The translations under genes were made by a program, and so were the position numbers. The notes under the pieces are model-generated. The model was not told where the DNA came from. It saw nothing but the letters and a program-made list of their open reading frames with translations, and searched no databases. From IMG/VR virus record IMGVR_UViG_2534681831_000011: a stretch of 12,566 nt of DNA. One strand, written 5' to 3'. Positions 1,184 through 1,547 of this stretch are shown here, in pieces (position 1 is the stretch's first letter; every line of letters begins with the position of its first letter). This DNA comes from a virus. Taxonomy: Duplodnaviria; Heunggongvirae; Uroviricota; Caudoviricetes.

Positions 1184-1223
1184 AAAAAAAGCCAGCGACT
1201 GACCTGAAAAAGAAGACGCTGGC
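1184..1223 (-). terminator. Putative rho-independent terminator (minus-strand reading), unit A
   Basis: Stem GCCAGCG (1191-1197) pairs with CGCTGGC (1217-1223) around a 19-nt loop. On the minus strand the hairpin is followed by 7 T (complement of the A-run 1184-1190). On the plus strand no U-run follows. Confidence 0.4.
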
Positions 1224-1331
1224 TAAAAGGCCTTATATGTTTGTAGAGACTTATTTTTCACAGACAGCAATGATGCCTGTCAATATATTATCAATATGCG
1301 GATTGTTTCAGTTACAGATGCTTTATTAAGG

Positions 1332-1374
1332 AAAAAAACAGCCAGCACTGACTTTCGGTGGAGAGGTGCTGGCT
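1332..1374 (-). terminator. Putative rho-independent terminator (minus-strand reading), unit B
   Basis: Stem AGCCAGCAC (1340-1348) pairs with GTGCTGGCT (1366-1374) around a 17-nt loop. On the minus strand it is followed by TG plus 7 T (complement of 1332-1338). Confidence 0.4.
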
Positions 1375-1547
1375 CAAAAGGATAGATGTACTTCACATGT
1401 TGCTTCTATATGGCAGTACATTTTCTGACAGACAGTGACGGATGTTGTCAAGATATTGTGTCATTTATAACCTGAATCGGGGAGGCCGGAATGTTATCTG
1501 GCATTTTTAGCAGAGCCTGAATGCCATAATCACGGCTCCCGGCGTTG

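Follow-up and report, generated by a model that had tools for sequence, protein, structure and literature searches.

The pasA small-RNA locus of an Stx1-type lambdoid prophage and its diverged tandem unit, the apparent site of EcOnc51 and EcOnc52

The window, by which we mean the whole 12,566-nt stretch of viral DNA analyzed here, is the late region of an Stx1-type lambdoid prophage. Its positions 1100-1650 are 99.5% identical to phage YYZ-2008 (NC_011356) and to many Stx1a phages, and the matching phage records give the gene order as Q, stx1AB, a SASA-family sialate esterase, holin, lysozyme, Rz, terminase, capsid, and portal. The 3′ part of the sialate O-acetylesterase gene (SASA family, nanS-p/yjhS type; 496-1182, plus strand), recognized from the list of open reading frames, its translation, and the annotation of matching phages, ends in a TAA stop at 1180-1182. 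It is the upstream neighbor, within the late operon, of two tandem intergenic units, here termed A and B; the downstream neighbor is the class II holin gene S (1628-1834, plus strand), where the lysis cassette begins. Both units lie in the 445-nt gap between these two genes, on the strand opposite to the late operon. The gap also holds a strong intrinsic terminator in the sense of the late operon (1547-1583, plus strand; an 11-bp stem followed by T6, 45 nt 5′ of the holin start). A homologue of this terminator is found in every esterase-holin gap type examined, and in the shorter types it has a compensated G:C to A:T pair (GGCCATCAG...CTGGTGGCT). It probably keeps Q-independent transcription off the lysis genes.

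The initial annotation, made from the sequence alone, had described two diverged units of ~150 bp in tandem, and its base-level claims all hold, with a start-to-start spacing of exactly 150 nt. Unit A has an A-run at 1184-1190 and an 8-bp stem (1190-1197/1217-1224) whose innermost pair is G1197:C1217; unit B has an A-run at 1332-1338 and a 9-bp stem (1340-1348/1366-1374). At the position of G1197:C1217, unit B carries A1347:T1367, the compensated change that had been proposed, and the additional pair ascribed to its stem is C1348:G1366. As anticipated, a minus-strand T-run follows each hairpin (7 U per stem), and both units fold as terminators. The terminators of unit A (1184-1224, minus strand; stem plus the 7-U tail that reads 1184-1190 on the plus strand) and of unit B (1332-1374, minus strand; 7-U tail 1332-1338) are supported both by these folds and by the record of phage 434, whose curators, independently, had assigned two minus-strand terminators to these positions. 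A 65-nt unit A RNA folds at -16.5 kcal/mol (z = -3.9). Similarity between the units is confined to two blocks, one comprising the hairpin and its flank (z = 5.7; matched by 0 of 1000 dinucleotide shuffles) and one in the downstream body (z = 4.9; matched by 3 of 1000). Because these separate blocks are collinear and the remaining body of the units is not alignable, we take the duplication to be real and old.

Sequence identity makes unit B the published small-RNA gene pasA. The Northern probe for PasA of enteropathogenic Escherichia coli (EPEC) E2348/69, GCCAGCACTGACTTTCGGTGGAGAG (Table S6, Pearl Mizrahi 2021, PMC8550237), corresponds to window positions 1341-1365 at 25 of 25 bases, and the PP2 locus of E2348/69 aligned to the window is identical over 1332-1416. 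This interval, read on the minus strand, is the 85-nt Hfq-dependent PasA (743499->743415 in NC_011601). Membership of unit B in the PasA family is further indicated by its location between the esterase and holin genes, its antisense orientation to both, and by a 3′ stem-loop with U-tract that carries the seed; between unit B and PasA of E2348/69, nothing differs in sequence over 1332-1416, strand, neighbors, terminator, or seed. In that strain, the small RNA of this sequence is abundant and its stability depends on Hfq, as evidenced by Northern blot and RIL-seq; 41 RIL-seq partners were reported, and its Hfq-mediated chimeras involve many core and virulence mRNAs (PMC8550237). A recent preprint (Zhu, Shabalina and Storz 2026) likewise assigns pasA to the gap separating the sialic acid esterase gene from the holin gene and names NC_011356, phage YYZ-2008, as the representative PasA phage.

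The published transcripts end where the initial annotation had placed minus-strand 3′ ends. The predicted end at ~1332 is the 3′ end of the 85-nt PasA. Near ~1184, the other predicted end, a 236-nt minor isoform terminates: it starts at the PasA 5′ end, passes the first terminator, and ends at the terminator of unit A (PMC8550237). Its end at 743264 (Table S6 of the same source) maps to ~1181, so that the isoform would occupy 1181-1416 on the minus strand and span both units.

A search of the window against Rfam 15, AsxR, AgvB, STnc100, and Esr41 included, returned nothing at the gathering threshold, and a permissive search of 1100-1650 gave chance-level matches only (E of at least 1.8). A scan of viral contigs with a degenerate hairpin pattern was abandoned as too unspecific, the matches listed being mostly to unrelated contigs, and relatives were for this reason drawn from holin-anchored loci, i.e., the esterase-holin gaps of 80 holin-anchored viral contigs together with the E2348/69 and Sakai loci. 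In tandem A+B gaps of ~445 nt, unit B is PasA itself or a version whose 5′ 40 nt have diverged, the latter fitting the description of PasA-2. Single-unit gaps of ~292 nt correspond to PasC, with a unit A-type stem (GCCAGCG/CGCTGGC), a loop of its own, and a unit B body. A further type (L021) has a single unit of the B type with another compensated stem change, GCCAGTAC/GTACTGGC, and two shorter gap types hold unrelated content.

PasC, known from prophage PP5 of E2348/69, resembles the pasA locus in family, position, and strand. It shares the stem and the 5′ arm UUUUAGCCAGCGUC with unit A and shares its body and promoter with unit B, and its locus is a single unit, exactly one 150-bp unit shorter than the tandem one. 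A simple deletion between the two hairpins is one possible origin of PasC, but a single crossover does not account for the PasC-specific loop and its matched stem.

Unit A was left out of the covariance model built from the relatives (R1; ten PasA, PasA-2, PasC, and L021 sequences). In the window, this model scores PasA at 91.9 bits; unit A follows with 32 bits (E ~3e-5, or 6e-4 in a search of 231 kb), and the next match, at 14.7 bits, is the same hairpin on the other strand. The unit A score derives mostly from the terminator and the UUUUAGCCAGCG context. By the measure of a model built without it, unit A belongs to the PasA/PasC family. The stem covariation that the initial annotation proposed to look for in related prophages is also apparent: in an alignment of 14 distinct relatives, 92.9% of the stem cells are paired, compared with 24-48% in controls with the 3′ partner slid by 1-3 columns, a supportive rather than formal test in that the sequences are related and their alignment, fitted to the model, leans toward structure. 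Four of the 11 stem pairs change on both sides, e.g., G:C <-> A:U or, in L021, C:G to U:A.

Other small RNAs are encoded nearby in prophages of this kind. AsxR and AgvB (RF02703/RF02702) are likewise short Hfq-bound RNAs whose genes, in the moron region, oppose the late operon. They match neither unit in sequence or by model, however; their genes precede that of the esterase, and they sponge core small RNAs, which PasA is not known to do. In Sakai Sp4, STnc100 (138 bits; positions 246-436, plus strand, of locus L207) lies just 5′ of the esterase gene and is convergent with a minus-strand terminator; this site fits EcOnc05 and EcOnc08 and also the PasD position described for E2348/69. Three further contigs (L014, L016, and L041) have, ~300 to 60 nt 5′ of the holin start, a different minus-strand unit with small-RNA features that abuts the esterase stop. 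Its parts are a U-tailed terminator (GCCAGCGCAGA...TCTGCGCTGGC), a further hairpin (GGGGATATTCCCC), and, upstream of these, TTGACA-16-TATAGA. Minus-strand small RNAs seem to have a general slot right after the esterase stop.

For unit A, published evidence comes from EcOnc51 and EcOnc52, two Hfq-CRAC peaks of E. coli O157:H7 Sakai (Tree 2014, PMC4104026, Table S2). The coordinates of that table refer to the old Sakai record, and we calibrated their offset to NC_002695.2 with AsxR, AgvB1, STnc100/EcOnc05/08, and EcOnc42. The offset is 0 at 1.18 Mb, where STnc100 and the convergent terminators fit EcOnc05 and EcOnc08, and ~140 nt at 1.27 Mb (AsxR), 1.94 Mb (AgvB1), and 2.92 Mb (EcOnc42). NC_002695.2 is hence shifted by ~+140 nt relative to the published small-RNA coordinates, with an onset between 1.182 and 1.268 Mb, and applying the table directly to this record misplaces most EcOnc RNAs. 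Once corrected, EcOnc52 (in Sp4) and EcOnc51 (in Sp12) both fall on unit A, on the minus strand, at window-equivalent positions ~1249->1172. The raw coordinates would have assigned EcOnc51 to unit B, a placement ruled out by the calibration. Within the part of Table S2 available for Sp4 and Sp12, a separate EcOnc peak on unit B was not found.

The two peaks are nearly equal in length (78 and 77 nt) and area, and the unit A copies of Sp4 and Sp12 are identical in sequence, so that CRAC reads multi-map; EcOnc51 and EcOnc52 are probably one signal mapped twice. In the Sp4 copy (L204, NC_002695.2 1181500-1182700), an IS629 element lies just after unit A, at window-equivalent ~1308, and displaces unit B, the plus-strand terminator, and the holin gene, with unit A and its promoter-like block left intact. 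Multi-mapping is also the reason why this copy devoid of unit B cannot prove independent transcription of unit A. Both peaks were originally reported as candidates from CRAC alone, on the same strand as the units, abutting the esterase stop, and flagged with a Rho-independent terminator (PMC4104026). They were later cited as homologues of PasA: remarks on the PasA entry in the EPEC RIL-seq study read "homologues in EHEC (EcOnc51/EcOnc52)" (PMC8550237). Our mapping identifies them as unit A instead.

In that same study, the unit A region appears as "pasA.E2348C_0688.IGR" under the PasA entry, and the authors take it as the 3′ part of a PasA isoform (PMC8550237). The corresponding fragments, 743267-743294, equal window positions 1184-1211 and are always the second RNA of the chimera. 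S-chimera fragments number 4983 under activating and 116 under nonactivating conditions for PasA, and 119 and 54, respectively, for unit A, i.e., the unit A:PasA ratio shifts ~20-fold between conditions. Unit A RNA is Hfq bound in both enterohemorrhagic E. coli (EHEC), as EcOnc51/52, and EPEC. The suggestion of a tandem small-RNA array antisense to the late operon, which the initial annotation offered with reserve, is therefore borne out by PasA and EcOnc51/52, published on near-identical sequence. The tandem-unit feature is real, but it was already known in the form of these RNAs, described since 2014 (EcOnc51/52) and 2021 (PasA).

Of 5426 complete E. coli genomes, 677 have chromosomal copies of unit A at 98% identity or more, the median number being 3. 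An orphan esterase 3′ end followed by unit A is also carried by plasmid NZ_CP027601.1 (L210) and by ~100 similar EHEC plasmids of ~90 kb. There, the unit is ~92% identical, has one stem pair broken (CGCTGGC to CACTGGC), and adjoins IS600 and the uilS lactonase gene, and the homology stops exactly at the would-be start of unit B.

Upstream of PasA and of the predicted unit A RNA, a promoter-like block lies on the minus strand. That of pasA (1421-1451) consists of TTGACA (1451->1446), 17 nt, and TCAGAA(AAT) (1428->1421), and that of unit A (1253-1283) of TTGACA (1283->1278), 17 nt, and TGAAAA(AT) (1260->1253); TTGACA and the 17-nt spacer are followed by TCAGAAAAT in unit B and by TGAAAAAT in unit A. 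The -35 element is perfect in both blocks and the -10 element is poor and A-rich, and neither TCAGAA nor TGAAAA passed promoter prediction as a -10 element. The published PasA 5′ end (1416) lies 7 nt past TCAGAA, the usual distance, which would place the starts at 1416 in unit B and at ~1248 in unit A. The latter coincides with the 5′ edge of the EcOnc52 peak (~1249). From this agreement and the block itself, we infer that unit A may have its own transcription start near 1248. The predicted unit A RNA would then be a ~65-nt minus-strand molecule (1184-1248), for which the covariance-model match, the EcOnc mapping, and RIL-seq argue, the 5′ end being deduced as above. The preprint allows that the PasA 5′ end may come from cleavage of a longer transcript (Zhu et al. 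2026), which would weaken the promoter reading.

The promoter-like block is the only segment of the post-hairpin body common to both units. In the 92%-identical plasmid copy, it shows 0 differences in 42 positions, compared with 13 in 108 elsewhere in the unit (p = 0.02, for a block chosen post hoc). Retention of the promoter and the terminator/Hfq module while the RNA body drifted is the pattern expected for two functional genes. The same organization might, however, reflect a decayed duplicate that is no longer a gene and whose hairpin serves as a back-up terminator for PasA read-through, shielding the esterase gene from antisense transcription. The 236-nt isoform running from the PasA 5′ end to unit A, the weak -10-like element of unit A, and a transcribed body that has only the terminator in common with PasA speak for such a role. 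It is nonetheless the less credible reading, one that we consider rather unlikely, given that the promoter-like block is the best conserved part both between units and in the plasmid copy, and that the Sakai CRAC peaks lie on unit A, their 5′ edge coinciding with the start predicted for it, whereas unit B has no peak among the Sp4 and Sp12 entries considered. The ~20-fold change of the unit A:PasA RIL-seq ratio between conditions and the conservation of unit A across those 677 genomes also tell against it. Whether unit A is an independently transcribed, as yet unnamed member of the PasA/PasC group with a PasC-type seed, which would make the locus a true tandem pair, is in our view an evenly balanced question.

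Both blocks further overlap with plus-strand promoter-like sites, CAGACA-17-TATATT at 1261-1289 in unit A and CAGACA...GATATT at 1429-1457 in unit B. Due to this overlap with the minus-strand TTGACA/-10-like elements, each conserved block could drive transcription bidirectionally. RIL-seq detected a plus-strand RNA from the PasA-holin gap, "pasA.E2348C_0689.IGR", at window-equivalent 1411-1429. A 58-codon ATG ORF on the minus strand (1448-1624), which stretches across the PasA promoter region, the plus-strand terminator, and the holin leader, is probably spurious.

The small plus-strand ORFs noticed in the initial annotation do exist. They have 30 and 29 codons (1237-1329 and 1386-1475), are preceded by AAGG, and, as stated there, are not conserved in frame: placed on the alignment of the units, they run in different frames and have no residues in common. 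The AAGG element itself did not stand as a Shine-Dalgarno sequence; AAAAGG is better read as the complement of CCUUUU just 5′ of each terminator. Small RNAs of this sort usually bind Hfq through a U-rich stretch beside a U-tailed terminator. These ORFs bear on the idea of type I toxin-antitoxin-like modules, in which they would encode the peptides and the minus-strand RNAs would act as antisense regulators. Such modules carry a small conserved ORF, as a rule hydrophobic, that an antisense RNA overlaps. The AAGG motifs and the overlap of the minus-strand RNAs with the 5′ parts of the ORFs are compatible with that arrangement. Relatives argue strongly against it: the ATG is lost in PasA-2, the PasC frame stops after 4 codons, and the two ORFs are not homologous to each other, so that their lack of conservation withdraws support from the proposal. 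Moreover, CCUUUU on the RNA strand accounts for the AAAAGG block, and the many trans partners of PasA on Hfq betray a trans-acting small RNA. We thus regard toxin-antitoxin function as extremely improbable.

The seed proposed for PasA, GCCAGCACCU, is part of the 5′ arm of its terminator stem (1364-1373, minus strand; text of Fig. S5, supplement of PMC8550237). Its unit A counterpart, GCCAGCGUCU (1214-1223), is of the PasC type. The seeds differ at two or three positions, i.e., GCCAGCACC in PasA versus GCCAGCGUC in unit A, and GCCAGCGUC is identical to that of PasC. A site complementary to the PasA seed, CTGGTGCTGGA, can be read from the sequence in the 3′ end of the esterase gene itself (1150-1160, plus strand), and its counterparts in E2348C_0688 and E2348C_1246 belong to the published RIL-seq motif sites of PasA (supplement of PMC8550237). 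It is on these published sites that we rely, as predicted duplexes of the small RNAs with the esterase 3′ end were uninformative, being long and unconstrained and equaled by 20-38 of 500 shuffles.

Proximity to these genes raises the possibility of action in cis, whereby both RNAs, being perfectly complementary to the late transcript, would tune lysis timing through cleavage or convergent transcription. The orientation of the units and their position directly 5′ of the holin gene would suit this role; in addition, RIL-seq found a plus-strand intergenic RNA that overlaps PasA at its 5′ end, and the listed PasA sites include the 3′ end of the esterase gene (PMC8550237). PasA is, however, abundant in uninduced lysogens, and its partners are mostly encoded in the core genome, for which reason we deem regulation in cis improbable as the main function, although it is compatible with, rather than exclusive of, the explanation that we favor.

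That explanation, in which we place high confidence, is that the sequence is a pasA locus, with unit B as PasA and unit A as its diverged tandem paralogue. The locus belongs to Stx1-type and related lambdoid prophages and runs antisense to the late operon. Unit A would have retained the promoter (TTGACA-17-weak -10) and the terminator/Hfq module, with a diverged 5′ body and the PasC-type seed GCCAGCGUC, and it probably yields its own RNA of ~65 nt (~1248->1184). The arrangement would hence be one of two tandem genes, each driven by a TTGACA promoter and each closed by a terminator in which the seed also resides. PasA and unit A RNAs may act in trans in lysogens, pairing with GC-rich CUGNUGCUGG-like sites once Hfq opens or competes with the terminator stem. 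Adjacent same-strand paralogues with their own terminators, conserved ends, and a diverged middle have precedents in OmrA/OmrB and PrrF1/PrrF2, to which the analogy is architectural only.

The published accounts of PasA do not describe its locus as a tandem duplication, and, according to the 2026 preprint, any two pasA copies lie at least 22 kb apart and do not represent tandem duplicates (Zhu, Shabalina and Storz 2026). Unit A presumably escaped that survey because it is too diverged for its BLAST filter. What seems to be new here is that the locus is a tandem paralogue pair and that EcOnc51/52 represent the second unit, unit A, and not PasA.

To conclude, our analysis puts PasA and the EcOnc51/52 peaks precisely on the sequence. 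Few accessory small RNAs bound to Hfq in enteropathogenic E. coli interact as richly as PasA, which has virulence genes among its partners. If confirmed, a tandem pair with two different seeds would slightly revise the picture of the Pas family, and unit A as a gene of its own would contradict the statement that Pas copies never occur in tandem. In that case, ~680 of 5426 complete E. coli genomes would carry up to 8 extra unannotated regulatory RNA genes.
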